A stretch of 33,502 nt of DNA from a virus. Shown in pieces: positions 1 through 33,502 of the stretch. How positions within the stretch are numbered: the stretch's first letter is position 1; every line of letters begins with the position of its first letter. The stretch lies in the IMG/VR virus record IMGVR_UViG_3300005573_001597; one strand, written 5' to 3'. The notes below the pieces were generated by a model. That model worked only from the letters and a program-made list of their open reading frames with translations, was not told the origin of the DNA and ran no database searches. The translations under genes and the position numbers were made by a program.

Positions 1-204
1 ATGAAAGACGAAGAGATTGAGCAACTGCGGCAACGGTTGGCGGAGCATGGCTATACCCTCGAAAAGGTTACGCCGTTTGCGCATCATGACCGCATTACCT
101 TTGGCAACAAGGAGCTAAAAGTATCAATCAACCTTCGGGGTAAACTCAGCCAATTTGCTCTTGAGGCTATCGTTAAAGCCTGCATCGGCAAGGAGGCGAC
201 TTAG
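1..204 (+). CDS. Hypothetical protein (67 aa)
   Basis: ORF abuts the next gene (TAG then ATG at 205); no motif recognised. Confidence 0.6.
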   Translation: MKDEEIEQLRQRLAEHGYTLEKVTPFAHHDRITFGNKELKVSINLRGKLSQFALEAIVKACIGKEAT

Positions 205-528
205 ATGGGTGACGCGGTTTGGAATAGTATCTCGCAGTCCTTCAAAGATGGCCTTCTGGAACTAATCATACTCCGATTGGTTAATGATGGTCCCTCCCAG
301 ACAGCGAAAAAATCTGAATTGACAAAGCAACTGGCTAAGAAAGCGGGTATCTGGCTCTCAGAATTTCAAGTTCTTGTTATCCTAAAACGCTTAGAAAAGC
401 ATGGCATGTTGAAGAGGATTCCGAACTCGCAAATCTTCGGCATTACTGCACATGGTAAAGAAGAGATTTACGACCGAGTTAGCCAGATGGAACGGTTCAT
501 CGGCTATGTCAAGGAGGGTTCGCCGTGA
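205..528 (+). CDS. PadR-like winged-helix transcription regulator
   Basis: FKDGLLELIILRLV...GP, then ILKRLEKHGML and FGITAHGKEE, matching the PadR/MarR wHTH pattern. Confidence 0.65.
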   Translation: MGDAVWNSISQSFKDGLLELIILRLVNDGPSQTAKKSELTKQLAKKAGIWLSEFQVLVILKRLEKHGMLKRIPNSQIFGITAHGKEEIYDRVSQMERFIGYVKEGSP

Positions 529-725
529 TAGATGAGGATGGTTTTGTTCTCAGAGAAGTCGTGTCGGTGCAGCGGGTGAAGATTCCAGAGGGCAATATCC
601 GCTGTCCTCGCTGTCAGGGCACAGGAAAAGACGTTAGAATCTATCGTGACCCTGGTCCTAACGAGTACATGACTTGCCTAAAGTGCATGGGGCAGGGCTA
701 CGTCAAACGGGAGGGTCAGCCGTGA
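525..725 (+). CDS. Small zinc-finger protein, DnaJ-type CxxCxGxG
   Basis: CPRCQGTG and CLKCMGQG; GTGA overlap with the previous gene. Confidence 0.65.
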   Translation: MIDEDGFVLREVVSVQRVKIPEGNIRCPRCQGTGKDVRIYRDPGPNEYMTCLKCMGQGYVKREGQP

Positions 726-889
726 CTAAATGCGAGTACTGCGGTAAAGAAATCGACCCGCGCTCCGATTTCGTGCCTCTTGACGACACCCGCACTACGC
801 GAGTACACGTAAAATGCTACCTCAAAAAGCTGTTTCCAGACGCCAAAGAAGGCGAAATTAAAGTCATCAAAGAGGAGGCTAAGCCATGA
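722..889 (+). CDS. Small zinc-finger protein
   Basis: GTG at 722 overlaps the previous stop; CEYC...HVKC. Preferred over the track start at 674. Confidence 0.55.
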   Translation: MTKCEYCGKEIDPRSDFVPLDDTRTTRVHVKCYLKKLFPDAKEGEIKVIKEEAKP

Positions 890-1035
890 CTGACCGAGTA
901 ATCGTTGATACTGAGGATTACTCGATTGGTGCGGTCATAACCAAAGATGGCGCGACAAACTATAGAGTGGTCAGTAAAATTCCGTGTCGCGGCGGTCATC
1001 GTTATGGGCTGAAACTGTTGGAGGCATTGCCGTAA
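886..1035 (+). CDS. Hypothetical protein (49 aa, not in ORF track)
   Basis: MTDRVIVDTEDY...LEALP; GGAGG upstream, ATGA overlap at the start and TAATG overlap at the end. Confidence 0.55.
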   Translation: MTDRVIVDTEDYSIGAVITKDGATNYRVVSKIPCRGGHRYGLKLLEALP

Positions 1036-1442
1036 TGGACGGAATAGAACCAAGCCCCTATCACTGCACGCCCTACATCGAAGACGCCGATCCAGACAAC
1101 TTCACGCCGTGCAAATGCCCGGTATGCGGTGGCTTTTTGACCTGGGATAAGACAGGCGAAATTCCAATCTGCAACAACTGCGGAGCTGAGTTGGCGAAAG
1201 TGCCTAAGCAGAAACCCAAAGAGGGCGAAGAGGAAAGCGAGGAAGACGACGATTTAGGCTACAGGGACGGCAAAATCTGCGTTTTGTCAGGTCCAAAATG
1301 GAGTAAAGGGGAACGCCGTGAGAAGAGACGGCAACGCCGCGAAGAAAGGACTTTGTTGAAAAAGCAGCGGTTGGAGCGAAGTAGGGAGAGGGCGCAGAAA
1401 GCGATAGATGCACTTAACAAGAGACTGGAGGCGCTGTCGTAA
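1035..1442 (+). CDS. Zinc-ribbon protein with acidic patch and basic coiled-coil tail
   Basis: CPVCGG...CNNCG; ATG at 1035 coupled to the upstream TAA (track start 984). Confidence 0.65.
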   Translation: MDGIEPSPYHCTPYIEDADPDNFTPCKCPVCGGFLTWDKTGEIPICNNCGAELAKVPKQKPKEGEEESEEDDDLGYRDGKICVLSGPKWSKGERREKRRQRREERTLLKKQRLERSRERAQKAIDALNKRLEALS

Positions 1443-1606
1443 TGCCTGAGGTTAAGTGTTCTGTTTGCGGTAAAGCCGTGAAGGCTTCGCCGTTTCAAGC
1501 CAAATTTCTTGAGCATGCGGCTAAGCAGGGGACGCCTTTTGTCTGTAGCGGTGAATGTAGCAAAAAGGTGCCTGATAGAAGCGGTGCTAGGAGTGTGAGT
1601 CTGTGA
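1442..1606 (+). CDS. TRASH/YHS-like metal-binding microprotein (54 aa, not in ORF track)
   Basis: MPEVKCSVCGK...FVCSGECSKK; TAATG coupling. Confidence 0.55.
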   Translation: MPEVKCSVCGKAVKASPFQAKFLEHAAKQGTPFVCSGECSKKVPDRSGARSVSL

Positions 1607-1779
1607 TGCTGGATTTACTTAGTGGCGTCATTGGTTGCTTTGTCGGTGTTCTCTGCGTTAGCCTTCTCTTCTATTTTCTTATGTGCTGGGTTGCTGCTCG
1701 TGCCTATGAGATGGGTTGGCGTGACCGAGATGGGGGCAGATGGATTGGGGACGAGCAGAAAAAAGAGGAGGTTCATTAA
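1606..1779 (+). CDS. Small single-pass membrane protein (57 aa, not in ORF track)
   Basis: MLDLLSGVIGCFVGVLCVSLLFYFLMCWVAA hydrophobic stretch then a charged tail; fills the gap exactly up to ATG 1780. Confidence 0.55.
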   Translation: MLDLLSGVIGCFVGVLCVSLLFYFLMCWVAARAYEMGWRDRDGGRWIGDEQKKEEVH

Positions 1780-2523
1780 ATGTTCAGGAAAATCTATATT
1801 GCATCCAGTTGGAAAAACAAAGATAAAGTTCGTGCGTTAGCTGGGAAACTACGCAGTTTAGGTCATGAAGTTTTTGATTTTACCGACCGAGAAAACCGCC
1901 CGAAAGGAACGGATTGGTTCAACTGTCCAGCAGATAAGTGGGATGGTCCGCCGCTTGCGACTATGGAGTATAAGGCGTTTCTCAAGTTCGCGACATCCCA
2001 ACATATTTTCACCGCTGATATGTCGGGACTACATTGGGCTGACACGGTAATTCTGTACTTGCCTAGTGGCCGCAGTAGTCACATGGAGGCGGGCTGGGGT
2101 GCTGGTGCTGGAAAAGACTTATTCATTCTGGGAGATTTGCCGCTTGGCGAATTCGACCCACTCTATTTCCTCGCAAAGGAATGCTATCACGAAGCTGAGT
2201 TGCCTGCGCTTTTGGAGACGCTTGCAAACCCATTCGGAAAGGTTGTTTGTGCTTGGTGTCAAAGCCCCGACCATCTGTCCAAAGACTGCCCCAGCAGCCA
2301 GAATGACGCGCAAAGTCGTGCATGGCGAGCTATCACAGACCCGCTAATCGAAGGCGATTACATTGGGTCTCTTCGCGGTGAAGTCAACATTTGTCTTAAC
2401 GTCATTCACTATCATAAATCGTTTGAGAAAGCGGTGCTTGAGTTGCTGCCACAGCGATATGATGAGATTCGGCGGCGGGCTAACGTAATTCGAGCGCGGG
2501 ATTATGGGAGGTTGCCTTGGTGA
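1780..2523 (+). CDS. Nucleoside 2-deoxyribosyltransferase / N-glycosidase-like protein with CCHC zinc knuckle
   Basis: KIYIASSW N-terminal strand; ADTVILYLPSGRSSHMEAGWGAG with the NDT-type catalytic Glu; C-terminal CAWCQSPDHLSKDC (CX2CX4HX4C). Confidence 0.7.
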   Translation: MFRKIYIASSWKNKDKVRALAGKLRSLGHEVFDFTDRENRPKGTDWFNCPADKWDGPPLATMEYKAFLKFATSQHIFTADMSGLHWADTVILYLPSGRSSHMEAGWGAGAGKDLFILGDLPLGEFDPLYFLAKECYHEAELPALLETLANPFGKVVCAWCQSPDHLSKDCPSSQNDAQSRAWRAITDPLIEGDYIGSLRGEVNICLNVIHYHKSFEKAVLELLPQRYDEIRRRANVIRARDYGRLPW

Positions 2524-2687
2524 CTGATGAAAAGCCGATTGTTCCTGAGGTTTGCGACCGCTTAAACTGTAATCTACCGTCTTGTTATGGTTGGGATTTG
2601 TGCAGGGAAGCCCGTGAAGCTTTGACGAATGAGGAACGGCAAAGGTGGGTTGAGGGCTTAAAGAAACTGTGGGGGCTTACTGAATGA
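2520..2687 (+). CDS. Cys-rich microprotein (55 aa, not in ORF track)
   Basis: MTDEKPIVPEVCDRLNCNLPSCYGWDLC...; GTGA and ATGA overlaps on both sides. Confidence 0.5.
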   Translation: MTDEKPIVPEVCDRLNCNLPSCYGWDLCREAREALTNEERQRWVEGLKKLWGLTE

Positions 2688-3577
2688 GTAAGTTTGAGCC
2701 TGTCTTGCAAGAGGTTGCGGATAAGATTTTGCATGATTTGCCTGAGGAGGTAGCTGTAGGCGTTTCTTTTAAGCTTCATGAGGGTGGGGATGCGCTGGTT
2801 TTGGCGTATCCTGTGAGTTTGCATGGGACGCCTGATATGCAGTTGCTTGACGGTGTTGTCCGCAGGTTTGGCGGAGCTTTTGTTAGCCGTGGGAAAGGTA
2901 ATTCGTTTTATTTGATTCCCAAACCGAAGCCTGTAGCTGAGAAGCCGATGGAAGAACCTAAACCCGCTGTTCCAACAGAGGCACCTAAACCTGTCGACGC
3001 TAAAACAGCCGAACCCGAAAAGCCAGCCCCGTCGCAAGAACAGGCGAATCCTCCAGAGCAGTTCAAGCAGCCCAGCCCAATTAGCATCTATCGCGGAAAA
3101 TACTGTAGCGCCTGTGAAGACCAGGGTACTTGTCGCCTTCCCAGCAATACCGGGCAGATGCAGCTTTGCGTCCGCATCTTGGAGTTGCAGTTTCTGGATG
3201 GCATTGCGGAGCGTTTGCATAAGCTTGGGTTGGTTCTTGAGGGTTTGCCTAAGCAGTTTCCGCAGCAAAAGCCGTCTGTTTCGCCTCCGTCCTCTCAGCC
3301 GCCGAAGGTGCAGCGGGACACTAACCCGCGGGAAGGGTTCGAAGAGGACGGGCTTGTCTGGGTTAAAGTGTTTGACGGTGCCAACGTGAAGTACCTGAAA
3401 GCCTACGAGAAGGATAACCAGGGCAGGCAGCGCTTCAAGGATTTGCAGGACTGGATCACTAAGAAGGGCGATAAGCCGTTTGCTAAGCAGCCTTTCTTGG
3501 GTGCGGAGTGCCAGGTCTTTCTATGGAATTTCAATCGTGGACCCAACGCGATTGGAAAAAGTAAGTGCAGGGGCTAG
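2684..3577 (+). CDS. Hypothetical multidomain protein with Pro/Glu/Lys-rich linkers and a Cys cluster
   Basis: 297-aa ORF coupled to the upstream gene; CSACEDQGTC motif. Confidence 0.7.
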   Translation: MSKFEPVLQEVADKILHDLPEEVAVGVSFKLHEGGDALVLAYPVSLHGTPDMQLLDGVVRRFGGAFVSRGKGNSFYLIPKPKPVAEKPMEEPKPAVPTEAPKPVDAKTAEPEKPAPSQEQANPPEQFKQPSPISIYRGKYCSACEDQGTCRLPSNTGQMQLCVRILELQFLDGIAERLHKLGLVLEGLPKQFPQQKPSVSPPSSQPPKVQRDTNPREGFEEDGLVWVKVFDGANVKYLKAYEKDNQGRQRFKDLQDWITKKGDKPFAKQPFLGAECQVFLWNFNRGPNAIGKSKCRG

Positions 3578-3608
3578 CTTTGGCGAGGTTTGAAGGGAGA
3601 ACGGGAAC

Positions 3609-4154
3609 TTGGGTGGGGAGCAAACTAAACTGGCTGTGCAACCGCGGCAGAATCTTATCTGCAATTTTAGAGCTCCCAACATGGACGAATTTCAAAAATG
3701 GAAAAAATATGTGCAGTGGGCGAAGGATAACGGCATGGATGTCTGTCATCTAACCCTTAGCTTAACGGATAGTTTTATGAAAGGCACGGAAGGTGCAGCG
3801 CAGGTCCGCAATGCTGGCCAAGTCGTCAATATCCAGCAAGTCAACACTTTTCAGTATCAAGTCCAGAAGCCGCGGCGGGAACCGTATAGTCTGGACTGTG
3901 TCAAACCTGAGTATGTGAGAACACTAAGTAGTACCCTCTTTGAGGCGTATGTCCTCAACAAAGCAAGAGATATAAACCGAGATTTTAGCTATATGGACTT
4001 TTTAGAGCTAAAACATGACGCTTTTCGCCGAATTATGGTTAGATTGAAGCGGAAAGGCAAAGTTATCGCTAATCCGCAGAGCACTCGCCCGCAATTTTAC
4101 TTCTTAACCGAAAAACTGCAACAGGAGAATTCAGGTTGGAATACACTACAGTAA
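3609..4154 (+). CDS. Putative DNA-binding protein (RHH-like N-terminus, wHTH-like C-terminus)
   Basis: Strand-helix-G-helix pattern (ICNFRA...WKKYVQWAKDNGMDVCHLT); C-terminal FRRIMVRLKRKGKV...PQFY. Fold call is inference. Confidence 0.55.
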   Translation: MGGEQTKLAVQPRQNLICNFRAPNMDEFQKWKKYVQWAKDNGMDVCHLTLSLTDSFMKGTEGAAQVRNAGQVVNIQQVNTFQYQVQKPRREPYSLDCVKPEYVRTLSSTLFEAYVLNKARDINRDFSYMDFLELKHDAFRRIMVRLKRKGKVIANPQSTRPQFYFLTEKLQQENSGWNTLQ

Positions 4155-5101
4155 AACCATTGTTTACAGGCGGGGCGGCTGCTGGGCGGGGCAGAAATGT
4201 TTTGTTGTTAGCCGTGGGTTCTAAGATGCCTGTTCCTGCGTTGATGAAGCTTAGTACGTATCACAAAAGGCTGGGTGACCGAGTTTTTTTTGGGAAGCCC
4301 TGTAATCCTGACGTGGTTTATGCTACAGTGATTTTTCAGAAGCATAAGGCGGAAGCTTTGGGGTTGGCAAAGATGTTTTCTTGCCCGGTGCATTTGGGCG
4401 GACCTGCTATTTCAAATGAGGGTTTGCCCGATGAGATTGAACATTTGATGCCTGACTATAGCTTGTACGGGATTGATTACGCGGTGGGTTTCACTAGTCG
4501 GGGTTGCAGTAGGCGTTGTGCTTTCTGTAGCGTTTTCAAGTTAGAAGGTGACATTCGGGAACATGCACCGTTTAGGGAGTTTGTATTGCCGAGGCATGAT
4601 AAGGTCCTGATTTTGGATAATAATTTTTTGATGAGTCCGAAATGTGAGGAGAAGCTGGATTATCTTCTTGAAAGACGCTTAGCGGTCAGTATTTGTCAGG
4701 GTCTAGATGCTCGGCTCATAACGAAGGATTTGGCGGATAAGATTGCTCGGTTACGTCTCTATAATTGGAAGTTCACCGACAAGGCGCTTTATACTGCTTG
4801 GGACCGCATCGAGGATGAAGCGGAAGTTTTAGAGGGCATCGATAACTTGATTGAGGCTGGCGTGAAGCCTCGGTTTATTCGTCCTTACGTTTTGGTTGGG
4901 TTCAACTCGACTTTAGAACAGGACGTTTACCGCTGGAAGAAACTTTGGAAACGAGGCGTCTACCCGTTCATTATGCCCTACAACCGCAAGTTTCATCCGC
5001 TTAGGCGGTATGGTCAGCGGCCAGCGTATTTCAAAACCACGGACATAGATGTCTACCTGAAGCAAATCGGTATAGAACTAAAGCGGGAGGTCTTCGCTTG
5101 A
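4136..5101 (+). CDS. Radical SAM Fe-S protein (virus-associated family)
   Basis: TSRGCSRRCAFC (CxxxCxxC), LDNNF and QGLDARL motifs; N-terminal PALMKLSTYHK. Confidence 0.85.
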   Translation: MEYTTVKPLFTGGAAAGRGRNVLLLAVGSKMPVPALMKLSTYHKRLGDRVFFGKPCNPDVVYATVIFQKHKAEALGLAKMFSCPVHLGGPAISNEGLPDEIEHLMPDYSLYGIDYAVGFTSRGCSRRCAFCSVFKLEGDIREHAPFREFVLPRHDKVLILDNNFLMSPKCEEKLDYLLERRLAVSICQGLDARLITKDLADKIARLRLYNWKFTDKALYTAWDRIEDEAEVLEGIDNLIEAGVKPRFIRPYVLVGFNSTLEQDVYRWKKLWKRGVYPFIMPYNRKFHPLRRYGQRPAYFKTTDIDVYLKQIGIELKREVFA

Positions 5102-5256
5102 GTTTGCAGGTTGAGATAGCGCCTTGTCCCTGCAGAAAGTGCCCGTGGAAACTCAGGAGTATGTGTGGCCATTATGCGGATGTTTGTTTGGAGCTTCGGA
5201 GCTGTAGTAATTGCGGGCATCCGCTTGAGCGATGCATTAAGGAGGCTTTCAGTTGA
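5098..5256 (+). CDS. Cys-rich microprotein (52 aa, not in ORF track)
   Basis: TTG start overlapping the upstream TGA; CPCRKC...CSNCGH...C. Confidence 0.5.
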   Translation: MSLQVEIAPCPCRKCPWKLRSMCGHYADVCLELRSCSNCGHPLERCIKEAFS

Positions 5257-5606
5257 GTTACAAGGAGCGGATGCATCCCAAAGTCAGCCGAGCAGAAATT
5301 GAAGTCTTCAAAGCTCTTAGCGGTTTGGGTTTGACTGGCGGGATGGTTACTCAAAAGCCGCTTGTGCTTAAGATGACGATTCCCGATTTTTGCTGGATTG
5401 AAAAGCGGAAGGTCGTTTATCTGGATGGCAGGCAGGTTCACTCTTCTGCTAAGGCGGAGAGGCGGGACGCAGAGATTGATGAGTTGCTGGAATTGCAGGG
5501 TTGGGATGTCTTGCGTATTGTCTATGACCCGCCGTTGACGGGCGAAAAGTTGCGGCAAGTGGTGGCTCAGATACGTGATTTTGTTGGAGGTATCGATGAG
5601 AAATGA
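5253..5606 (+). CDS. DUF559/Vsr-like PD-(D/E)XK endonuclease
   Basis: IPDFCWIEKRKVVYLDGRQVH...RDAEIDELLELQGWDVLRI. Confidence 0.8.
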   Translation: MSYKERMHPKVSRAEIEVFKALSGLGLTGGMVTQKPLVLKMTIPDFCWIEKRKVVYLDGRQVHSSAKAERRDAEIDELLELQGWDVLRIVYDPPLTGEKLRQVVAQIRDFVGGIDEK

Positions 5607-5794
5607 GAGTTTTTGGCAGTAAATGGCTGTTCAGAATTTTTAGAGGGCACTTTTTGGGGTGTAAAAGCATGGACTTTTTCCATGCTTTGCGAAGTGCCGT
5701 TTTAGCAGTCGCCGATGTAGACTACGAACTGTTAGTTTTGCCTTTCGTGAATGTTAACGAAACACAGGAGTGTGCAGTTTGTTATGGAAGTTAG
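5603..5794 (+). CDS. Hypothetical protein (63 aa)
   Basis: ATGA overlap with the nuclease gene; no motif. Confidence 0.35.
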   Translation: MRVFGSKWLFRIFRGHFLGCKSMDFFHALRSAVLAVADVDYELLVLPFVNVNETQECAVCYGS

Positions 5795-6284
5795 CGGAAA
5801 ACCTGTTCAGAAGAGTAGAAAAAGGCGTGACCAGAGCGAGAAAGTAGGGCGTCTAAAACACATTATTGAGCTTTGTAAACGGATAGACAAAAAGCTTGAT
5901 TCTCTTGACCGTAGAGTTAGCCGTATCGAGACGTATCGTAAGCATGATCTTGATTGGGTGCGCTCAGACATCGAGGAGATTTGCGCCGATGAGGTTGACC
6001 GGGAGATTGTGCGTTTAGTTTTCGAGGTGGGGGATTCGGGTTTGCTGCCTAGAGTTATAGCTGAGAAGTTGGCGGGTTTTGGGGTTACTCGTTTTCATGT
6101 GGCTCGCAGGATTGGGCGGATGAATAAGCGGTTTAGGGAGCGAGTGGACGAGGCTTTGTTTGAGCAGCGGGGTTGGCGTTGGGCGCTTTCAAAGTTTGCT
6201 GTTAATGCTTGGGGAGGCAGCGGAAAAGTCGAAGCGGATGCAACTGCTGAGATTTCCCAGACTGAAGAGGATGCGTGGCAATGA
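5784..6284 (+). CDS. Coiled-coil plus HTH-like protein, possible regulator
   Basis: ATG at 5784 preferred (track start 5751); basic N-terminus, coiled coil, LLPRVIAEKL...TRFHVARRIGRMN helix-turn-helix-like segment. Confidence 0.6.
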   Translation: MEVSGKPVQKSRKRRDQSEKVGRLKHIIELCKRIDKKLDSLDRRVSRIETYRKHDLDWVRSDIEEICADEVDREIVRLVFEVGDSGLLPRVIAEKLAGFGVTRFHVARRIGRMNKRFRERVDEALFEQRGWRWALSKFAVNAWGGSGKVEADATAEISQTEEDAWQ

Positions 6285-6475
6285 AAAAGGCGGATTCTGT
6301 TTTGCCTTTAGTTGAAGAGTGGCCGCTGGGTCCGCCGCATTATCCCGTCAAAAAGGTTATCTGTGCTGTTTGTGGGCGGGCTGTCTGGCTTGAGCAAACG
6401 CCTGAGTATTACGCAGTGCGGGAGCATGTCCGTTTTGTTTGTACCGATTGCTTTGAGAGGAGCATCAAGAAATGA
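6275..6475 (+). CDS. Small zinc-finger protein
   Basis: CAVCG...CTDC. Confidence 0.6.
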   Translation: MAMKKADSVLPLVEEWPLGPPHYPVKKVICAVCGRAVWLEQTPEYYAVREHVRFVCTDCFERSIKK

Positions 6476-6762
6476 AGCCTAAAGGATTTTTAGTTATAAA
6501 TCTTAAGTTGCTGCGTCGTTTTCAGGTGCCTACCGCTACTTGGGATTTGGTAAAAGACGGCACTTGGAAGACCTATTCTGGTGCTTTTCCCCAAGTTGAA
6601 AAACTCAAGAATCTAGGGCTTATCGCCTTAGCCTATGCTGACCGTACTAAGCGTGGGAAGCCAAAGAACCTTTATGCTCTAACCAAAAAAGGCAAGCTTT
6701 TGCTTGAACTGTTCCCTGAAAACGAAGCTGATGAGGATTACGGCTTATGGGAGGTATCTTGA
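6472..6762 (+). CDS. Winged-helix transcription regulator (PadR/ArsR-like)
   Basis: VEKLKNLGLI...RGKPKNLYALTKKGKLLL wing motif. Confidence 0.7.
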   Translation: MKPKGFLVINLKLLRRFQVPTATWDLVKDGTWKTYSGAFPQVEKLKNLGLIALAYADRTKRGKPKNLYALTKKGKLLLELFPENEADEDYGLWEVS

Positions 6763-7016
6763 TTTTGGCGGTAGCCAAGCAGGAGTTTTACTTGAAGGGC
6801 ATCTATCCTGTGGAGGTTATCTCTGAGGTTAAAGATGGCTATGTGGAGGTTCGGGCGAAAACAAATTTTCTGCATACCAGTGAGTATTCAAAGGGGAAGC
6901 GTCAGGTTCGTGTCGGCGTGACTGAGAAGCGTTGGGTTAAGTCAGGTGAGGTTTTGAGGGTTCCGTTTCGCCATGTTTGGTCTAGTAGGCGTCCTGCGCC
7001 GAAGGGTTATCGTTGA
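6747..7016 (+). CDS. Hypothetical protein (89 aa)
   Basis: ORF ending just before promoter motif A. Confidence 0.55.
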   Translation: MGGILILAVAKQEFYLKGIYPVEVISEVKDGYVEVRAKTNFLHTSEYSKGKRQVRVGVTEKRWVKSGEVLRVPFRHVWSSRRPAPKGYR

Positions 7017-7019
7017 TTT

Positions 7020-7037
7020 ATAAGTTAATTGTTATAT
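7020..7037 (+). promoter_or_regulatory. Late-promoter motif A: ATAAGTTA-attg-TTATAT
   Basis: One of four copies with identical 8-mer and 4-nt spacing to a TATA-like box, each at an operon start. Confidence 0.7.
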
Positions 7038-7068
7038 TGGCAGGGCGGACTAAGATTTTCTTCAAGAG

Positions 7069-7347
7069 ATGCTGGAACCGATGTTTAAGCTGAATTACGA
7101 AACTCTCACTTGCAAGATTCATCTCAGCCTACGTGGTCAAAAAGACAAAAAGGGCAAGTTTGACTGGTCTGGCGCCGTCTTGGATGCAGGGATTATTAGC
7201 GGTATCACGTTCTTTACGGGGCTGGGCACTTTGGCTTCTAGCGCCGCAATTTCTCCTACGAGCCTTTGCGTGCTGCTTAGTGCGGTTGGTGCCGAGTTTT
7301 TTGGGATTCTTGCAACTAAGCGAGGGCTAGTTCAAAAAAACTGTTAG
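7069..7347 (+). CDS. Small membrane protein (two hydrophobic helices), holin-like candidate
   Basis: FDWSGAVLDAGIISGITFFTGLG and LCVLLSAVGAEFFGILA. Confidence 0.55.
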   Translation: MLEPMFKLNYETLTCKIHLSLRGQKDKKGKFDWSGAVLDAGIISGITFFTGLGTLASSAAISPTSLCVLLSAVGAEFFGILATKRGLVQKNC

Positions 7348-7353
7348 GAACGG

Positions 7354-7941
7354 TTGAAATTGGAAAAGGTGTCCATAACTATTCCTGAGGTTTACAAGGG
7401 CATTGTTGAAGACCTGCGTCTTTTGCAGAGGGACGGCCAGAATCCCAATAAGATGACGGATAAGCAAAAGGCGTCCGTCTGGAAGAGTTTAACCGATTTC
7501 GGCTGGATTTATCCCATAGTCACCAATAAAGACGGTGTGCTAACCGACGGAGAGCAACGTGTAGATGTCTGTTTGGAGCATAGCGAGTTTTACGGTCCTG
7601 TTCTGCGGCTCCCAATTAAAGACGTTAATAGACGAATTCTGCGGCAAGTTCTCAATAAACTGAAAGGTACACATGATAAACTTTTAGACGCTCAAGAGTT
7701 CCAGCGGATTCGTGAAGCTGACGGGGAAGAGGACCTGAAAGCGCTTTTGGGTCTTTCTAATCGGACGTTGGAGCAGTATGATAAGTTGCTTAATGATGCT
7801 AAGAATAGCGCTGAGAGCGGCGATATTTTGTTGGATCATACTTTCCAAGTAGTTATCACATGCGCTGATGAGGCGGAGCAAAAGCAGATATTTGAAGAAC
7901 TGCAAGCGGAGGGTTATCGCGTATCAATTTTGACATTGTGA
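7354..7941 (+). CDS. ParB/sulfiredoxin-like N-terminal domain protein
   Basis: NPNKM...SLTDFGWIYPIVTNKDGVLTDGEQR (DGHHR-like)...LNKLKGTHD. Confidence 0.8.
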   Translation: MKLEKVSITIPEVYKGIVEDLRLLQRDGQNPNKMTDKQKASVWKSLTDFGWIYPIVTNKDGVLTDGEQRVDVCLEHSEFYGPVLRLPIKDVNRRILRQVLNKLKGTHDKLLDAQEFQRIREADGEEDLKALLGLSNRTLEQYDKLLNDAKNSAESGDILLDHTFQVVITCADEAEQKQIFEELQAEGYRVSILTL

Positions 7942-8603
7942 GAGAATGGCGTAAGCCTCAAAGTTTCAGGGCGCAGAGCGTAGCCAGCAGCTTTACCATT
8001 ACCGCTGACAAGATGGATAAGCGGTTTGTTGGTTCGTTGCCGATTGAGGATTGGAGTTGGCAGATTGGCGTCATTGTTGGGCGTAGTGGCACGGGTAAAA
8101 CAACTATAGCTAAGCAGCTTTTTCCAGCCGATTACATAAGAGGCTTTGAGTATGGAGCTGAGACTATCCTTGATGATTTTCCTGAGGGTCTTTCCGTGTC
8201 TGAAATTACGCGGGCGCTTTGCTGTGTGGGTTTCTCTTCGCCTCCTGATTGGCTTAAGCCCTATGCTGTTTTGAGTCAGGGTGAGAAGATGCGTGTGGAT
8301 GTTGCACGTGCTCTTTTGCTTGCGGAAAAGCGGGTGGTTTTTGATGAATTTACGAGTGTGGTTGACCGTGAAGTCGCCAAGATTGCATCTCTCGCCATCA
8401 GTAAAGCCGTGCGGCGGTCAAATAAGCAGTTCATAGCTGTAACTTGTCATCGTGATATTCTTGATTGGCTTGAGCCTGACTGGGTTTTCGATACAGACGA
8501 TATGACGTTTGATAAAAAAAAAGAATCCATCCGCCGCTTGAACTCAAAATTCTCGAAGTTAAGCGTGAACTCTGGGGATTGTTTAGGAACTATCATTATC
8601 TAA
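7938..8603 (+). CDS. ABC-type ATPase (soluble; N-terminal part of a probable frameshift fusion with GNAT)
   Basis: Walker A GRSGTGKT, signature LSQGE, Walker B VVFDEFTS, H-loop VTCH; no membrane partner. Confidence 0.88.
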   Translation: MREWRKPQSFRAQSVASSFTITADKMDKRFVGSLPIEDWSWQIGVIVGRSGTGKTTIAKQLFPADYIRGFEYGAETILDDFPEGLSVSEITRALCCVGFSSPPDWLKPYAVLSQGEKMRVDVARALLLAEKRVVFDEFTSVVDREVAKIASLAISKAVRRSNKQFIAVTCHRDILDWLEPDWVFDTDDMTFDKKKESIRRLNSKFSKLSVNSGDCLGTIII

Positions 8604-9001
8604 ACACGGATGAGCTTAATTTTTGTACGTGTTATGCTGCCTTTTTAGATGGAAATCCTGTGGCTTTTTTGGCTGTTCGCCATGTGAAGATGAAGTCTGA
8701 ATATTTTGCGGTAAGTCGCGTTGTTGTGTTGCCTGATTATCAAGGTGTAGGGATTGGACGGCGGCTTGTGACTTTTGTTGCTGAGCATTATCGGTCTCGG
8801 ACGCATCGGTCTTTTCGTCTTGTTACTAGTAATCCGCAGTTCGTTTATGGCAAGATGCCTGGCTGGCGTCTGGTGCGTGTTGGTAGGTCGGGGCGTTTGG
8901 ATAATGCGAGTTTTCGGCAGCGGTTTGGCGGCGCCTACACGTCTAGTAGCAGAAACCGCTTAACGGTTACGCTTGAATATTTAGGAGTGCTTAAGGCATG
9001 A
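8516..9001 (+). CDS. GNAT acetyltransferase domain, reachable by -1 frameshift at the A9 run
   Basis: Motif A VSRVVVLPDYQGVGIGRRL; this frame opens right after TAA 8513-8515 (KKRIHPPLELKILEVKRELWGLFRNYHYL). The track start at 8579 is a TTG with no clear RBS. Confidence 0.8.
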   Translation, partial: KKRIHPPLELKILEVKRELWGLFRNYHYLNTDELNFCTCYAAFLDGNPVAFLAVRHVKMKSEYFAVSRVVVLPDYQGVGIGRRLVTFVAEHYRSRTHRSFRLVTSNPQFVYGKMPGWRLVRVGRSGRLDNASFRQRFGGAYTSSSRNRLTVTLEYLGVLKA

Positions 9002-26843: not shown

Positions 26844-27146
26844 ATGTGTATGGATTTGCAGGTTTTACTCGGTCCCTTTTTCCCCTATGTCGTCAGCATC
26901 GTAATTACGCTGATGTACGCGACGCTGGGCAAGACATCGAGCGGGGAACCCTTCGACAGAAACAAGTTTCTTGCAACTTTGGGCGTGCAAGTGGCTGCAG
27001 TAATCAGCATCGGCTTTGCAGGTGAACCAACAATTACGGCGTTGGCGCCCTCGGTTGTCACAGTGCTGTTCATGAAGGCGTATAGTGTCGCAAAGCAGAA
27101 ACTCAAAGCCCCAGTATCGGCGGTTCCCAAAACTGCTGCTTCTTAG
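26844..27146 (+). CDS. Small multi-pass membrane protein, holin-like candidate
   Basis: GAGGTGA RBS; three hydrophobic segments around GEPFDRNKF; basic C-terminus; last gene of the late operon. Confidence 0.6.
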   Translation: MCMDLQVLLGPFFPYVVSIVITLMYATLGKTSSGEPFDRNKFLATLGVQVAAVISIGFAGEPTITALAPSVVTVLFMKAYSVAKQKLKAPVSAVPKTAAS

Positions 27147-27463
27147 CAGCTCTTCTCTTTTTTGATGAGTTGAAACTCGTAAACTGTGACTACTAGGTCG
27201 GGGTTGTAGTTGCCGTTAATTTGAATCCAGGCTTGGCGGAATTCGTCTATACTATTGAAGCCTTCTTTTTTTGCTTCTTTTTCGCTGATGCAGCATAGGG
27301 GCTGTCGGTATTTTTTGAGAATTTTTATGTAGCCTGCGGGTTTGGTGTAGCCGCTGCTGACGGGTTGGATGCTACCTACGGTGAATTGTTTGGGGCCTAG
27401 GCGGCGGGTTTGCGTTTTCTGACCGCTTAGGACTTTGGCGAGTAGGTCTGCTTTGAAAAGCAT
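27143..27463 (-). CDS. ASCH domain protein
   Basis: MLFKADLLAKVLSGQKTQTRR...AKKEGF...F...W...VTVYEF. Confidence 0.85.
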   Translation of the reverse strand: MLFKADLLAKVLSGQKTQTRRLGPKQFTVGSIQPVSSGYTKPAGYIKILKKYRQPLCCISEKEAKKEGFNSIDEFRQAWIQINGNYNPDLVVTVYEFQLIKKEKSC

Positions 27464-27465: not shown

Positions 27466-27570
27466 TTACCACACTACCGGGAAGGGTTCGAGAATTTCCG
27501 CTTTCGCTCTTTTGGCGATTTCCTTGAGCGGTAGCTGTTTGGTTTCTAAATATTTTAAACCTTCAAACAT
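27466..27570 (-). CDS. Microprotein (34 aa, not in ORF track)
   Basis: AGGTGA RBS before the ATG; MFEGLKYLETKQLPLKEIAKRAKAEILEPFPVVW; stop lies 2 nt before the ASCH ATG. Confidence 0.5.
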   Translation of the reverse strand: MFEGLKYLETKQLPLKEIAKRAKAEILEPFPVVW

Positions 27571-27636
27571 TTTTTTCACCTTTTCTTTTCCCCCAACTAG
27601 GCAAGCTAGTTGAGGCTGGAAAGAAACGTAAAATTT

Positions 27637-27863
27637 GGGACGGCTCTTATCGAGCGTTTAAAAGTCTAGTCTATCGTCTTTTTCTAGGCGTCTAGATAAG
27701 CTCGCGAAGTCTTCGCGAGAAAAAGTAAACTTTAGACGTTAGACGCTTACTCGAAACTACTCGCTTACTCGTCTAGAACTTAAGAGACTTCTAGAGGTTT
27801 CGCGAGCCTAGAGCGCTTAGTTTTTCTCGCTCGTTCGCGCTTTCTTTTTCGCTATTTCTTACT
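27637..27863. other. 227-nt CA/TG-free intergenic island with short palindromes and direct repeats
   Basis: Read base by base: no CA or TG step; 6 CTAG, 3 TCGCGA, inverted repeat CTCGCGAAG-T-CTTCGCGAG (27701-27719). Confidence 0.9.
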
Positions 27864-27876
27864 GTAATTTACAGTA
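27860..27876. promoter_or_regulatory. Operator 1: TACTGTAA-T-TTACAGTA
   Basis: Perfect inverted repeat abutting TTTATAAG (a leftward TATA-like box on the - strand). Confidence 0.75.
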
Positions 27877-27916
27877 TTTATAAGCTTTTGTCATGGAAAA
27901 CGAATAAAGCTTAAAT

Positions 27917-28105
27917 GTGAATCGAAACAATTATAGAACGGAGCTTGGTCGGTTGGGAAGCGACTATAAGTGCAAAAAATGCGGTTTTACGTTCCCCAAA
28001 AAAGGCGCCAATATCAGCGGCGGAGAGGGCTATCCCTATGGGCATCATGTACACTGCCCAAACTGCGATGCTGTGGTTGCCCAGTTTGTCAAAGTTGCTC
28101 AGTAA
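27917..28105 (+). CDS. Small zinc-finger protein
   Basis: CKKCG...HCPNC. Confidence 0.5.
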   Translation: MNRNNYRTELGRLGSDYKCKKCGFTFPKKGANISGGEGYPYGHHVHCPNCDAVVAQFVKVAQ

Positions 28106-28201
28106 TGTCGCTTTGGAGAACAGTATTATTTCTGTTGGGTCTAATACTTAGTTTTTAATTTCGAACAGGTTTATTTTGGGTTTATGAAGGTGTGCCTTTA
28201 G

Positions 28202-28384
28202 ATGAGTGAAAAAGAAATTGAGGTTAGGCAAGTCTCGCCTATCGTTTTTGAGCTTTCAATTCCTGAAGAACTATACGTTAAGCTTAAGGAGGCGGCTGAT
28301 TCTGGGGGGTTTGATTCTGTTGACTCCTTCGTTTCAAGGTCTCTTCTGCCAACTCATTTAGCCGATATATTACGTAGCCGTTGA
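28202..28384 (+). CDS. RHH (CopG-like) DNA-binding protein
   Basis: AGGTG RBS; FELSIPEELYVKLKEAADSGGFDSVDSFV strand-helix-G-helix pattern. Confidence 0.6.
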   Translation: MSEKEIEVRQVSPIVFELSIPEELYVKLKEAADSGGFDSVDSFVSRSLLPTHLADILRSR

Positions 28385-28499
28385 AGCTTGTGATTCCGTG
28401 TCGAACTAGCCACTCCTTTGACATGGCTTTGTAGTCTTTCATCAGGATGTCGTATGCTTCTTGCCTTACTGTGAAGTTCCGAAAACCTTTCGGGGGCAT
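28284..28499 (-). CDS. RHH-like DNA-binding protein (repressor candidate)
   Basis: GFRNFTVRQEAYDIL...HGITSFNGYV; N-terminus similar to 28706-28879. Confidence 0.65.
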   Translation of the reverse strand: MPPKGFRNFTVRQEAYDILMKDYKAMSKEWLVRHGITSFNGYVIYRLNELAEETLKRRSQQNQTPQNQPPP

Positions 28500-28536
28500 C
28501 TTAGGGTGTACCTTCTCGCGTTGTTTTCTTTTTTTA

Positions 28537-28553
28537 TACTGTAACTTACAGTA
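28537..28553. promoter_or_regulatory. Operator 2: TACTGTAA-C-TTACAGTA
   Basis: Perfect inverted repeat just downstream of a - strand TTAAATAT box (28567-28574). Confidence 0.75.
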
Positions 28554-28609
28554 AGATGTCCGAGTTATATTTAAGTTGTGGGGTATATTGCTGCATATTT
28601 GGGTATGAA

Positions 28610-28680
28610 TATATAACTACTGTAAACTACAGTAAGGCTTATATCTCGAGTGCTCGTAGGGAGTATATAACTACTGTAAA
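28610..28680 (+). promoter_or_regulatory. Operators 3 and 4 with tandem TATATAAC boxes
   Basis: 17-bp direct repeat TATATAACTACTGTAAA at 28610 and 28664; operator 3 at 28618-28634 (1 mismatch), half-site at 28672-28679. Confidence 0.75.
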
Positions 28681-28705
28681 ATGAGGTAAGAGGTGGGGAA
28701 AAGTA

Positions 28706-28879
28706 ATGCCTGTTCCAGGATACAAAAATATAACCGTAACCGAAGAGGTCTACGGTAAACTTGAAATTTTAGCAAAAGAGGACAACAGAAGCGTAAGCAA
28801 CGAAGCGGAACAATTAATCATCAATGCGGACAAAAACCGCCGAAAAACCCGAAAAAAGATAGCTTTGGAGGCGGAGTAA
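28706..28879 (+). CDS. RHH-like DNA-binding protein (57 aa, not in ORF track; Cro-like candidate)
   Basis: GAGGTG RBS; MPVPGYKNITVTEEVYGKLEILAKEDNRSVSNEAEQLI. Confidence 0.7.
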   Translation: MPVPGYKNITVTEEVYGKLEILAKEDNRSVSNEAEQLIINADKNRRKTRKKIALEAE

Positions 28880-28880
28880 C

Positions 28881-29174
28881 TTGCTTGCGGGGAATAGACT
28901 TGGCAGACATATTTCTGTCTCTGGGGAAAACAAGCCACGACCTACACCTTTTTCATGCTCTCCCTTCGTCCCCCGGAACTCCCAGACGCAAGCAGTACCC
29001 AGCGAACAAGCTAGTACCGGGTCTTATGATGCCTTGCTGAAAGCGGTTTGGTGCCCTATCTGCGGCGGAAAACTCACTGTGCAGGAGAAAGACGGAAAAA
29101 AGACGCTTGTTTGCAGTCGGCATGGCGAGATGAAGGTTTTCCTTGACCATGACCCGAAGGTTGGAGGTGAATAA
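28881..29174 (+). CDS. Zinc-ribbon protein
   Basis: WCPICGG...CSRHG; true start uncertain. Confidence 0.55.
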   Translation: MLAGNRLGRHISVSGENKPRPTPFSCSPFVPRNSQTQAVPSEQASTGSYDALLKAVWCPICGGKLTVQEKDGKKTLVCSRHGEMKVFLDHDPKVGGE

Positions 29175-29176
29175 GC

Positions 29177-29401
29177 TTGTCTGAAGAGGTAGTTTTAGAG
29201 TATGCCGGTAGTTCCGTTAGCAAGCGCAAAGACAAAGAAGGTAACATAGTTGAAGTCTACAAGGTTAAGCTGCAGGACGACAAAAAACGGTACACACTAA
29301 CCATCAGCGACGGCAGCGAGGCGCTTTTTGACAAGTATCCTGAAGACTGCGAAGTACCCATTCAACTGAACAAAAGCAGCCAAACTAAGCTGATGGAGTA
29401 A
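29177..29401 (+). CDS. Hypothetical beta-rich protein (74 aa)
   Basis: GGAGGTGA RBS then TTG start. Confidence 0.65.
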   Translation: MSEEVVLEYAGSSVSKRKDKEGNIVEVYKVKLQDDKKRYTLTISDGSEALFDKYPEDCEVPIQLNKSSQTKLME

Positions 29402-29407
29402 GCAAGC

Positions 29408-29803
29408 ATGGCTGAGCGAACTCTCAAGACAGCTGGGTGGCAGGCGCAGGCTAGACCCGCAGAGGGTAGAGAGTTAATTGAAAGTAGGCAGCTTATCCGC
29501 GAAGTTATCTTTAGTTTGCATCGCGAAAAAGCTGAGTTACTTGCTAAAATGGGTATGCCAGCTCAGCCTGTTCATCTTTCCCAGATTTTTAAGGAAATTG
29601 AAAGTCGCATAGCGCTTAGGCGCAGTTGCGGTTGCTGGCCTCATCCGCCGCATGAGAAGCGTTGGTGGGATCGCCGTGTAAACGAAACCGCCTGCCCAAG
29701 CTACTACGATGATGGCGTGCCTAAGATTGTGTCCGCGTCTGCGGGCTTGTACATGCCTAATCCTCTTTTATTCGCTAAAAAAACCGTGGAGGTCACTCAA
29801 TGA
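29408..29803 (+). CDS. Hypothetical protein (131 aa)
   Basis: In-operon ORF; ATGA overlap with the next gene. Confidence 0.65.
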   Translation: MAERTLKTAGWQAQARPAEGRELIESRQLIREVIFSLHREKAELLAKMGMPAQPVHLSQIFKEIESRIALRRSCGCWPHPPHEKRWWDRRVNETACPSYYDDGVPKIVSASAGLYMPNPLLFAKKTVEVTQ

Positions 29804-30060
29804 GTGCGTTTAATAAGACATTACCGCCTTGTGCGAAGTATAATTATGACTGCAAAAACTGTAATCACCCATTAATTCCGCAGTCGCCTAAAGGCCCGCT
29901 TGTGCCCTGTGACGGCACGATTCATTTTTGCCGTTTTGCCACACCCAGCACCACGACCCCAGCTTGTCCGCGGTATGACTTGCATAATTATGCTTGTACA
30001 CATGGTGGCGGGTCTTGCGCTGGATACAGAAAAAGGAGGCGTCTTAGTCATGCCTTTTAG
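29800..30060 (+). CDS. Cys/His-rich small protein
   Basis: CAKY..DCKNC, C..IHFC, CPRY...C...C. Confidence 0.55.
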   Translation: MSAFNKTLPPCAKYNYDCKNCNHPLIPQSPKGPLVPCDGTIHFCRFATPSTTTPACPRYDLHNYACTHGGGSCAGYRKRRRLSHAF

Positions 30061-30283
30061 TGTTGATTTTACAAAAGACCGACCGAAGGCTGTCATTAAA
30101 CTTCCAGGTTATTTAAAAGTAAGCTGTCAAAAAGCCGACTCCTGCAATAGTTCCTCGAAGCGGAAGCGTGGTTTCGTCTGTGGTAGCGACTTTAGCCATG
30201 ATGACCGTATGCAGAGCTGTGCGGAGTATTGCCGTTTATGCCGCGGCGTAGGCTATGGGGAGAGGGGAGGGTATCCAATTTGA
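30050..30283 (+). CDS. Cys-rich small protein
   Basis: GGAGG upstream of ATG 30050 (track start 29900); CAEYCRLCRG. Confidence 0.5.
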   Translation: MPFSVDFTKDRPKAVIKLPGYLKVSCQKADSCNSSSKRKRGFVCGSDFSHDDRMQSCAEYCRLCRGVGYGERGGYPI

Positions 30284-30690
30284 ATTTTGGTGACGTGCCA
30301 GAGTTGTCCAGAAAACAGAAGCTTTTGCTTATGATTTCAGGTCAGGCTTTTCTTAGATTCCAGCAACCCGATGGCTATCGTTTGCCTGTTGCGGTGTACG
30401 TGGTTAGGTGTTCTAAACATGGTTTATATTTGGATACTCCACATGGCTTCAATGGTTATTTTCAATGTAACGATTGCTTGGCTGAAGCGGTTGCCGAGAC
30501 TAAATCTGTTGTTGATCTCGGTTTTTGTCCTAGATGCAAGGATGTGATTCAGCCTGAGCATTCTGAGGGTTACGCAAGCCGACCTGTGGATGGCGTCCTG
30601 TTCTGTACCTTGTGTGCTTGGCATGCCGAGGGCGATCCAGCGGAGCGGAAGAGATGGGTAGAGTGGGCAAAGACGGAGGCTGCCAACTAA
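30280..30690 (+). CDS. Double zinc-ribbon protein
   Basis: TTG at 30280 overlaps the upstream TGA; CSKHG...CNDC and CPRC...CTLC. Confidence 0.6.
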   Translation: MNFGDVPELSRKQKLLLMISGQAFLRFQQPDGYRLPVAVYVVRCSKHGLYLDTPHGFNGYFQCNDCLAEAVAETKSVVDLGFCPRCKDVIQPEHSEGYASRPVDGVLFCTLCAWHAEGDPAERKRWVEWAKTEAAN

Positions 30691-31815
30691 ATGGGCTGGG
30701 ATTCTAAAACAATCATTTGGGGCGACCTCGGCGAAAGCTTCTGGCGTCGCTATGCTGAACTCTCCTATTATCAAAGGCGCCAATTTCTCCTAAAGTATGG
30801 CCTTCAATATGGCGACGTCCCCAAATGCAGAAAATGCAAAGCCGTCTTTCATCACTGCTACTGCAACGATGAGCAACACAAAGCTATCATAGCCGCTCAC
30901 AAGGCAGAATACAAAAAACCGTTCTCTGAGAAACTACGGCATTCTGAGGAGCTAGTCGCCAAAGTCTTAGAGGAGCATAAAGGCGAAAAAATCTATCTAG
31001 CCTACTCTGGCGGAATCGATAGTGAGTGCTGCGTCCGACTTTTCCAAGACGCCATCATAGACGGCAGAGTAACTCTCATTACGTCAGACACCCTCGTGGA
31101 CTTCCCAGAAACCCGTGCTAAATGGGTTGAATTGGAGCAAGAATTAGGCGTCAAAATCACCTTTGCCCGCCCTGACCCAGGCGTTTCCTATAAGACTATC
31201 ACCCGCTGCAAAGACTTGCCAGTTTACGCGAGGGCTGGAATCGACAAAGAGAAGCGCCGACCGACTGAGCTATGCTGCGAGGGATTAAAGAAGAAAAACA
31301 TGCGCAAATTGGAGAAAGGCGCTACTGTTCTTATTTTAGGCATCCGAGGCACCGAGAATCATAATCGCCGACTCAAAACTATCAGATACGGGGATTACTT
31401 TTTCGCTAAATCACACAAGCAATGGCACGTTTACCCTATCGCCTACTGGACTATTGAGGACGTCTGGGAATTCCAGAAGCTTCGAGGCTTTAGTTATAAT
31501 CGCCTTTACGACAAAACAAACTGCGGCAAAAAAGGGTTCTATCTGCTACCAAACGGTGAATACTATCAAATTAGAACTGGCTGTTGGCCGTGTCCTCAGT
31601 CAATCGACGGCGGCTATCTAATCTGGCTCAAAGAGTATTTCCCCAAGTTCTACGACGCCATGGTTAACAAGCTGGGCTTACGAGACCACGTTATTTGGGC
31701 GCATGTTCAAGCAGTAATGGGCAACCTACTGTCCAAACAGACGGAAATTTGCGGTGCGTTCGATTCGCTAGCTAGCAAACCTCGTAAGAAACGTTTGGAG
31801 GTTATCGCCCAATGA
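30691..31815 (+). CDS. PAPS/APS reductase family protein (CysH/DndC superfamily)
   Basis: YSGGIDS PP-loop, DTLVDFPET, CCEGLKK, GIRGTE, PIAYWT..DVW, RTGCWPCP. Confidence 0.88.
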   Translation: MGWDSKTIIWGDLGESFWRRYAELSYYQRRQFLLKYGLQYGDVPKCRKCKAVFHHCYCNDEQHKAIIAAHKAEYKKPFSEKLRHSEELVAKVLEEHKGEKIYLAYSGGIDSECCVRLFQDAIIDGRVTLITSDTLVDFPETRAKWVELEQELGVKITFARPDPGVSYKTITRCKDLPVYARAGIDKEKRRPTELCCEGLKKKNMRKLEKGATVLILGIRGTENHNRRLKTIRYGDYFFAKSHKQWHVYPIAYWTIEDVWEFQKLRGFSYNRLYDKTNCGKKGFYLLPNGEYYQIRTGCWPCPQSIDGGYLIWLKEYFPKFYDAMVNKLGLRDHVIWAHVQAVMGNLLSKQTEICGAFDSLASKPRKKRLEVIAQ

Positions 31816-32066
31816 TTCCTCGTGTGCCTCCTTACACGGCGGCGGGTTGGAAAGAACTGGCCTGCGCGACGGATAGTTGGGCGGATAGCGACCCGTTTGA
31901 GGAAACCAAATGGTTCCACATGCTAAACATTGTTCCGTCTGGATGGCAGGGGCAGGAGTTCCCAGATATTTTCAATGTAGTCATGGGCAAAGTTAAGCAG
32001 CCAAAGCCGCCTCGCCAACGAAAAGTAAAGGTGCGGCAAGCATCGTTAGAGGAGGCTTTTGCTTAA
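31812..32066 (+). CDS. Hypothetical protein (84 aa)
   Basis: ATGA and TAATG coupling on both sides. Confidence 0.6.
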   Translation: MIPRVPPYTAAGWKELACATDSWADSDPFEETKWFHMLNIVPSGWQGQEFPDIFNVVMGKVKQPKPPRQRKVKVRQASLEEAFA

Positions 32067-33502
32067 TGGTGGGGTTGGGGAGGGAAAAGTGTGAGCTTGC
32101 CGGGTCTCTTGTAGAAGTCGGTTCAGATTTCAGTGGCAAGTCGGTTACTACCATAGCCGCCGACGCTCCGCTCCCAAAACTCCAACTCTGCCCTAACTGC
32201 AAAAGTTCAAAGGTTGACCGTAATGGCTCAGATGTCCGCTATGGCGTACGAATTCAGCGGTATAAGTGCCAGAATCATGGTTGTGGCCTACGTTTCAGCG
32301 ATGCAGGCGACTTGGCGAGGGCTGCGGCGGCGAAGCAGCGGTTTATTGCTGATAGCTTAAATTTTGGATGTGCTAATAGGGTATCTATCCAAGTCTGCGA
32401 CAAAAATATGGTAGAAGGTTCGAAAAACTTGGGTAGTGAAACACAGCAGCGTGAACGTTGTGTTTCTCAAGATGAAAAACTGAAAGACACCAACACAAGC
32501 AGCATTGAACTCGTAATCGCCGACTATAAGCACTATATGCAGAAAGAGCACATCGTCAACGACCTAACCCTGAGCAGATACGTAACCCGTTTACGTATGC
32601 TTGCAACACAAATCAAAGTTGACCTCTTCAATCCTGATGACTTCAAAGCAAAGCTCGCATTCGACCCAGTCTTAAGCGTGAAAAGTAACTGTAATAAGAA
32701 CAGCATCTGTAAAGCCTACAGTAGTTTCGTTAAAAGCTACCTGCACATAAAAGACGTCAAAATTCCGCACTTCGAGTATAAGTGTCCTGAGTATGATGTT
32801 CCATCAGCAAATCACATGGAATTGTTATACTCGATGCTAAGCGATCAGATGCGGGTCTTTTGCTATGTGCTGATGGCAACTGCCGCCAGACCTATAGAAG
32901 CCTTACGCCTTGAGTGGAAAGATATCAACTTTGCGCAGAGAACTATCGCTATCAATCATCCTGCTAAGCATGGCCGCACTAGAACTATTCAGTTGAAAGG
33001 CAGATTCGTCAAGGTCATCGATATGCTATTCGACTGGAAAACTCGCCAATACGACCGTGACGTCGTCCAGTGGCGGGGAAACCGCAGCCCAGAACTAGTG
33101 TTTACCTATAAGGACACTGACGCTGCAGGTCACAACTTCCGCAAAGCCCGGGAACGCGCAGTACGAAAATTAGGCGGACCCGACCAAGCGCCAGAACTGA
33201 TGAGAATTACATTCTACAGTAACCGTCATTGGCGAGCGGTCCTTGAGCGATACCTGAAAGGCAATAGTGACGCAGTAGCTAACCTGCTGGGTGAGAATAG
33301 CGACAAATACGTGCAGGTGTATGCGCCGATTTCAGAGCGGCTCTATGGCAACAGCAGAGAATTTGACCCTGTGGAAATCCTTGAGACTGATCCAGATTAC
33401 AGCGAAAAGATGGAAAAATATGGCCGAGAAGGCTACATAGAGTACAACTATAACCGAACGACTGGCAGGCATTACCTGCGCAAGGAGAAGTGTGAATATT
33501 GA
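32066..33502 (+). CDS. int: Tyrosine recombinase/integrase with N-terminal zinc ribbon
   Basis: CPNC...NG...QRYKC...C ribbon; ATAARPIEA (Arg), PAKHG (Lys), YSNRHW, LLGE-x8-Y. Confidence 0.85.
   Translation: MVGLGREKCELAGSLVEVGSDFSGKSVTTIAADAPLPKLQLCPNCKSSKVDRNGSDVRYGVRIQRYKCQNHGCGLRFSDAGDLARAAAAKQRFIADSLNFGCANRVSIQVCDKNMVEGSKNLGSETQQRERCVSQDEKLKDTNTSSIELVIADYKHYMQKEHIVNDLTLSRYVTRLRMLATQIKVDLFNPDDFKAKLAFDPVLSVKSNCNKNSICKAYSSFVKSYLHIKDVKIPHFEYKCPEYDVPSANHMELLYSMLSDQMRVFCYVLMATAARPIEALRLEWKDINFAQRTIAINHPAKHGRTRTIQLKGRFVKVIDMLFDWKTRQYDRDVVQWRGNRSPELVFTYKDTDAAGHNFRKARERAVRKLGGPDQAPELMRITFYSNRHWRAVLERYLKGNSDAVANLLGENSDKYVQVYAPISERLYGNSREFDPVEILETDPDYSEKMEKYGREGYIEYNYNRTTGRHYLRKEKCEY

Follow-up and report, generated by a model that had tools for sequence, protein, structure and literature searches.

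The viral DNA analysed here (IMG/VR record IMGVR_UViG_3300005573_001597; a stretch of 33,502 nucleotides, referred to as the window) carries a real, conserved and apparently undescribed structured element with a maintained ban on the dinucleotides CA and TG. Comparison with relatives indicates that this element, called the cassette, is discrete and optional and lies at the predicted +1 of a leftward accessory operon, because it has a fixed start behind three promoters and the same promoters are empty in four relatives. The cassette is probably a folded RNA made from the leftward promoter. Coordinates are given in Table 1.

Table 1. Features of the cassette region, in window coordinates.
Feature	Position	Strand	Remarks
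CA/TG-free run	27637..27863	.	dinucleotide count; identical in L173-L175
Optional structured cassette, first bases GCGAAAAAG at predicted transcription start	27641..27852	-	~212 nt; ~275 nt in L189
Putative TATA-like box, leftward promoter	27876..27883	-	from position and consensus; 31 nt before cassette
Palindromic operator, one of four, overlapping promoter; itself contains TG/CA	27860..27876	.	family D2, I2-I4
Predicted P1 helix: 27839-27834 with 27708-27703, 6 bp, invariant	27703..27839	-	
Predicted P2 helix: 27830-27815 with 27730-27715, 15 bp, C.C mismatch, invariant G-U	27715..27830	-	
Predicted P3 helix: 27807-27802 with 27764-27759; rewritten in G012 and L189; closing G-U/A-U exchange	27759..27807	-	4/6 pairs change both sides
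Predicted P4 helix: 27795-27789 with 27778-27772	27772..27795	-	5/7 pairs change both sides
U-rich tract, then covarying 10-bp hairpin, outside purge	27591..27633	-	
SD (27581-27576) and 34-codon stub of LPD29 gene (ATG 27570)	27466..27581	-	truncated here; 128 aa in G001
ASCH-domain gene, final gene of leftward operon	27143..27463	-	PF04266, 1e-9
Small zinc-ribbon gene, divergent from cassette	27953..28105	+	

The window represents a head-tailed temperate virus with terminase, HK97-type capsid, tail and tyrosine integrase genes. It also encodes RHH proteins, accompanied by four palindromic operators, and virus immunity appears to rely on both. A tRNA-Arg(TCG) gene adjoins the virus in the window and in two relatives. 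Relative G012 abuts a ribosomal eL22 gene, from which we take the host, an archaeon of sediments, to be probably Bathyarchaeia. In this relative (G012 1-1000; L107, L163) the provirus ends ~700 bp past the cassette beside host eL22, and the side next to eL22 has neither immunity region nor integrase.

The CA/TG-free island has the immunity region on one side and, on the other, a leftward operon whose small genes vary (LPD29, zinc ribbons, ASCH); the cassette lies ~18 kb downstream of the terminase genes. The leftward early accessory genes are probably anti-host. In the window this operon is mostly deleted; the deletion took the accessory genes between cassette and ASCH and shrank LPD29 (27466-27570, minus strand) to a 34-codon stub, and the cassette is intact. 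In L189, the unit of U-tract, hairpin and SD (window 27576-27633) is repeated before a second gene (755-820 and 2000-2070); it resembles a gene-cassette head or processing site. In L180, a very close relative of the window virus, a gene for a TFIIB (TFB) homolog (3297-4271, minus strand) lies immediately upstream of the cassette promoter, where the zinc-ribbon and left RHH genes would otherwise be. Elsewhere in the window, genes for a ParB-like protein, an ABC ATPase and a GNAT acetyltransferase (7354-9001) directly precede the terminase; this module is widespread in relatives and is a candidate for packaging-linked DNA modification. A PAPS-reductase gene occupies 30691-31815, a locus that in relatives holds a C5 DNA methyltransferase gene (L002 4803-5573; L185 545-1282).

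Over the 227 nt of the island, 0 CA and 0 TG were counted, as had been claimed in a preliminary description of this DNA. Elsewhere in the 33.5-kb window the longest CA/TG-free run measures 45 nt, and the CA+TG frequency of the whole window is 0.131. Under a first-order Markov model, the probability of the run was 2e-17 per site and 7e-12 after a correction that took in the window length and the 10 classes of dinucleotide. Across 20,000 mononucleotide shuffles, CA+TG averaged 27.7, with a minimum of 13. Our counts agree with the motifs listed earlier (6 CTAG, 3 TCTAGA, 3 TCGCGA, and two copies each of TTAGACG and GCTTACTCG) and with the scarcity of GG and CC (5 and 1 occurrences, respectively; CC/GG O/E 0.27). 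AT, which had not been listed, is likewise depleted (4 occurrences; O/E 0.23). CG and AG/CT are raised (O/E 2.0 and 1.75), and TA barely so (O/E 1.13).

The island is not an artefact, because three other JGI assemblies (L173-L175) carry a 100% identical sequence. A simple repeat or low-complexity tract was rejected, as no array accounts for the island, and a RIP-like purge by C-to-T deamination was rejected on the doubled CG and barely elevated TA. The five scarce steps spell CCATGG; this was judged a coincidence, such a chain having about even odds. Rfam 15 returned only chance matches, far under the gathering threshold, and no match to the cassette was found in the GTDB genomes, INPHARED phages and plasmids searched. 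A covariance model of the cassette recovered no further homolog from 76 sources, and pattern matches in L147, L148, L150 and L190-L192 were attributed to chance. The literature searched held no description of such a CA/TG-free island. In more distant viruses, a purine-rich, CA/TG-poor non-coding patch lies just after an HTH gene (G005 29316-29398; G004 ~1250-1320); it has two 10-mers in common with the 3' part of the cassette and no covariance-model match, and is a possible origin.

Six distinct alleles carry the cassette (window, L180, G001/G027, L185-188, G012 and L189), and the first 23 nt are common to all six. In three unrelated promoter types its predicted start lies 30-31 nt after the A/T octamer, and the genes behind it differ from virus to virus. 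L170, G003, L195 and L166 have the same promoters and no cassette; in these empty alleles an SD-like stretch and ATG occur directly where the cassette would begin. The purge covers the cassette from +1 to ~+200 in all carriers, where CA/UG are lacking and AU, GG and CC are scarce. The operator, promoter, 3' hairpin and downstream genes contain CA/TG, and the first 200 nt of the empty alleles show no purge. In the test on syntenic relatives proposed in the preliminary description, carriers thus kept the CA/TG void, and empty alleles merely lacked the cassette. Two positions were revised: the functional unit begins at 27852, not at 27863 where the island ends, and the leftward TATA-like octamer is at 27876-27883 rather than 27877-27884.

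The cassette is predicted to fold into a rod of four helices, P1-P4. In this rod 97.5% of cells are paired and 10 of the 34 pairs change on both sides, in a sample of ~3 independent lineages with mostly block rewrites and with a structure chosen with these sequences in view; the covariation controls gave 0/500 for shuffles and 32-48% for slid controls. Pair counts on A9 were set aside, one row in them being spurious. P1 provides no covariation information because it is invariant. P2 masks an internal U5 tract, and in L189 it has a compensated substitution and a paired insertion. P4 has three stem sequences and one common 10-nt loop (27788-27779), which is mostly deleted in G001. On the leftward strand there are 1-2 G-U pairs per allele and 0 A.C pairs, and that strand is 5-7 kcal/mol more stable. 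The 9-bp inverted repeat reported earlier at 27701-27719 is perfect in the window but disrupted in G012 and L189; it is not conserved. Single-sequence folding energy was no better than that of dinucleotide shuffles (z -0.3 to -0.8) and is uninformative: with so self-complementary a composition, shuffled sequences fold just as well. The window's own MFE favours a different 3' arrangement, and pairing of the 5' arm with the cassette 3' end is possible in several alleles; a cassette RNA with two states is conceivable. The proposed secondary structure is supported by compensatory change, seen in few independent lineages.

Avoidance of CA/UG is actively maintained in the cassette. Between the window and L189, the most diverged allele, 35 substitutions in a 158-nt core created 0 CA/TG versus 8.9 expected with derived-base composition kept (0/20,000); scattered single substitutions in L189 avoid CA/TG as well. 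In G012, 1 CA/TG was created versus 4.0 expected (P = 0.046). The same substitution test revealed no avoidance in the flanking ASCH gene or the upstream region. Exceptions within cassettes comprise 4 CA events and 1 UG, or 2 UG if one at the 3' margin of L189 is counted; numbers this small do not establish an asymmetry. In the unpaired parts, CA is depleted (P ≤ 0.007), as are UG (P ~0.01-0.02), GG and AU. A ban on UG only, with start codons avoided and CA lost via pairing, was rejected on this depletion of CA in unpaired parts.

Among the three alternatives offered for the island in the preliminary description, a non-coding RNA from the leftward TATA fits best: the cassette stands at the predicted +1 behind three promoters, and covarying stems and wobbles favour the leftward strand. 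The optional nature of the cassette, which is missing from same-promoter relatives that include G003, rated 100% complete by CheckV, speaks against its being an essential origin or packaging site. The whole cis-acting account, which we hold tentatively, is that of a structured untranslated leader of ~210 nt with which the leftward early transcript begins. With the RHH repressor off the operator, host RNA polymerase would make the cassette RNA first, and this RNA would fold as the rod P1-P4, hiding its own U5 tract; its A-rich 5' end would be able to pair with the distal U-tract. The distance from cassette start to the first ATG is 282 nt, and the fold would enable polymerase to cross 280 ribosome-free nt. 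The leader may tune read-through into the variable accessory genes, a function that HK022 put and the P4 leader have in bacteria. The composition of the cassette would represent negative design of a naked nascent RNA: with neither CA nor CC, it would offer no preferred cut sites to host aCPSF1/FttA or a similar RNase, and with no UG, AU or GG, it would present no start codon and no Shine-Dalgarno motif.

In vitro, Pab-aCPSF1 prefers single-stranded CA, cuts at CC as well and leaves helices uncut (PMC3553952). FttA cuts nascent RNA 22 nt from the 3' end and binds U-rich RNA; within the termination complex it selects for U rather than CA (PMC11616081). Counting against a reading at the RNA level, CA is missing also from the helices, which aCPSF1 spared in vitro, and both CA and UG occur in ordinary archaeal ncRNAs. 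Since unpaired parts are short of CA and of UG alike, two RNA-level pressures would be needed, and the strand-symmetric ban would be explained more simply by one DNA-level agent.

Such a DNA-level agent is a serious rival to the leader RNA, although we rate it as rather unlikely. The cassette would then act as folded ssDNA or extruded DNA, e.g., as a transcription-primed (R-loop) auxiliary origin, and would have to exclude a step recognised by some enzyme acting on DNA, such as one that places a viral base mark, a primase or a nuclease. TG/CA is a single base-pair step of which both halves are depleted, and hairpin covariation alone does not separate RNA from ssDNA. The ORFs scanned (window 1-9000 and 28200-33502) include no DNA polymerase, replicase, helicase, primase or Orc1 homolog, which would suit an auxiliary origin; however, no ORB-like repeats or iteron array, adjacent initiator or skew inversion was found, and G003, L170, L195 and L166 do without it. 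Thymidine hypermodification directed to TG exists in phages (PMC6449724), but genes for it were not detected. The ParB-ABC-GNAT module does not track the cassette, being present with it and also in the cassette-less G002, G003, G004, G005 and G009, and promoter, operator and genes are unpurged. The zone free of a DNA mark that had been suggested earlier is weakened on both counts, though it may still apply.

The DNA-level agent is possibly the same as the one purging the early blocks of Wifcevirus phages. In phage ECML-117 (JX128258), positions 7146-7645 are coding DNA with a CA/TG O/E of 0.22, doubled CG, and normal AT and CC/GG. Like the cassette, the early-gene block of Wifcevirus phages combines strand-symmetric CA/TG loss with doubled CG at the head of early transcription units. 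However, it consists of ~1.5-2 kb of promoters and coding genes and its purge is incomplete, with AT and CC/GG spared, whereas these steps are depleted in the cassette, where the purge is nearly absolute, is confined to ~210 nt of non-coding, structured sequence and stops at the promoter. The ECML-117 void is real and similar to that of the cassette, but not the same. In the same phage sequence (L193), a 250-nt non-coding stretch at 4501-4750, ~2.5 kb from the void, has 33 TG and 0 CA on one strand.

It is unlikely that the cassette is a gene of its own for a trans-acting small RNA. Such an RNA, terminating or being processed at the U-tract and hairpin (27633-27591), would be uncleavable and would either decoy or inhibit a protein of the host: an RNase, a termination factor or a defence protein. 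The U-tract and covarying hairpin do follow the cassette, and its loops are invariant while stems vary. Like the anti-defence-type genes that come after it (LPD29), it is an optional module, and it moves among promoters and downstream genes. However, every cassette found lies in cis, at +1 of that one operon, and conserved antisense targets of the P4 CI/C4 type were not found in the viral genomes, where the only matches of at least 11 nt common across genomes were operator and A-tract words. A selfish or neutral element, for which we see little chance, would be a small mobile insert or the product of local template switching that remakes palindromes and recycles a small vocabulary, its dinucleotides not being under selection. 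The sharp edges of filled versus empty alleles, the block-wise changes, the many short palindromes and the unremarkable folding energy are compatible with it. On the other hand, there is a single copy per genome, always at the same site, and a search of 1.1 Mb of related viral DNA with the covariance model revealed no second copy. The hallmarks of MITE or IS-derived elements (terminal inverted repeats, target duplication, several copies) and a transposase were not seen, isolated single substitutions in L189 avoid CA/TG, and the distant P2 arms are compensated.

On present comparisons, the cassette appears to work like a viral leader RNA outside the catalogued families; the literature searched describes neither a structured leader nor an antitermination RNA in any tailed virus of archaea. 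In HK022 putL and lambdoid nutL, structured untranslated RNA follows a repressor-controlled leftward early promoter, ahead of accessory genes. The cassette is likewise placed directly after the leftward early promoter of a temperate tailed virus and before accessory genes; unlike putL/nutL it has an archaeal promoter, is ~3x longer and is optional, and its antitermination role is predicted. It has no sequence or Rfam similarity to HK022 put, for which we know of no dinucleotide ban. P4 CI and P1 C4 are RNAs from the long structured leader of an early leftward operon, and C4 is in Rfam. The cassette resembles them in being a long leader with internal complementary motifs and possible alternative pairings, but it has no Rfam match and immunity apparently depends on RHH proteins and operators.

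Archaeal oriC1-type and viral origins are ORF-free, palindrome-rich intergenic regions, and so is the cassette; unlike them it has no ORB repeats, A/T unwinding element, adjacent initiator or skew switch, and it is missing from a complete relative. Frpo/ssi elements are folded single-strand promoters of ~200 nt in plasmid leading regions, upstream of anti-defence-type genes. The cassette also offers a foldable strand of ~200 nt upstream of such genes; in contrast to Frpo/ssi, it lies downstream of an ordinary double-stranded TATA promoter in a head-tailed virus, and its stems hold no conserved promoter box.

The module is of a size (210 nt) that makes synthesis and tests with purified archaeal RNA polymerase and aCPSF1 feasible, its sequence rule is strict, and nature supplies alleles with and without it. 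With this finding, the CA/TG void is no longer confined to the early genes of bacteriophages: it also occurs in an archaeal virus, and in a non-coding element, which constrains the possible agent. It is doubtful that, in tailed viruses of bacteria and archaea alike, the nucleic acid transcribed first is shaped by one CA/TG-reading agent, with the cassette as a folded RNA or ssDNA that evades or jams this agent; if true, this would define a new kind of viral counter-defence by dinucleotide-level negative design. The cassette also bears on how archaeal tailed viruses carry untranslated RNA past FttA/aCPSF1.
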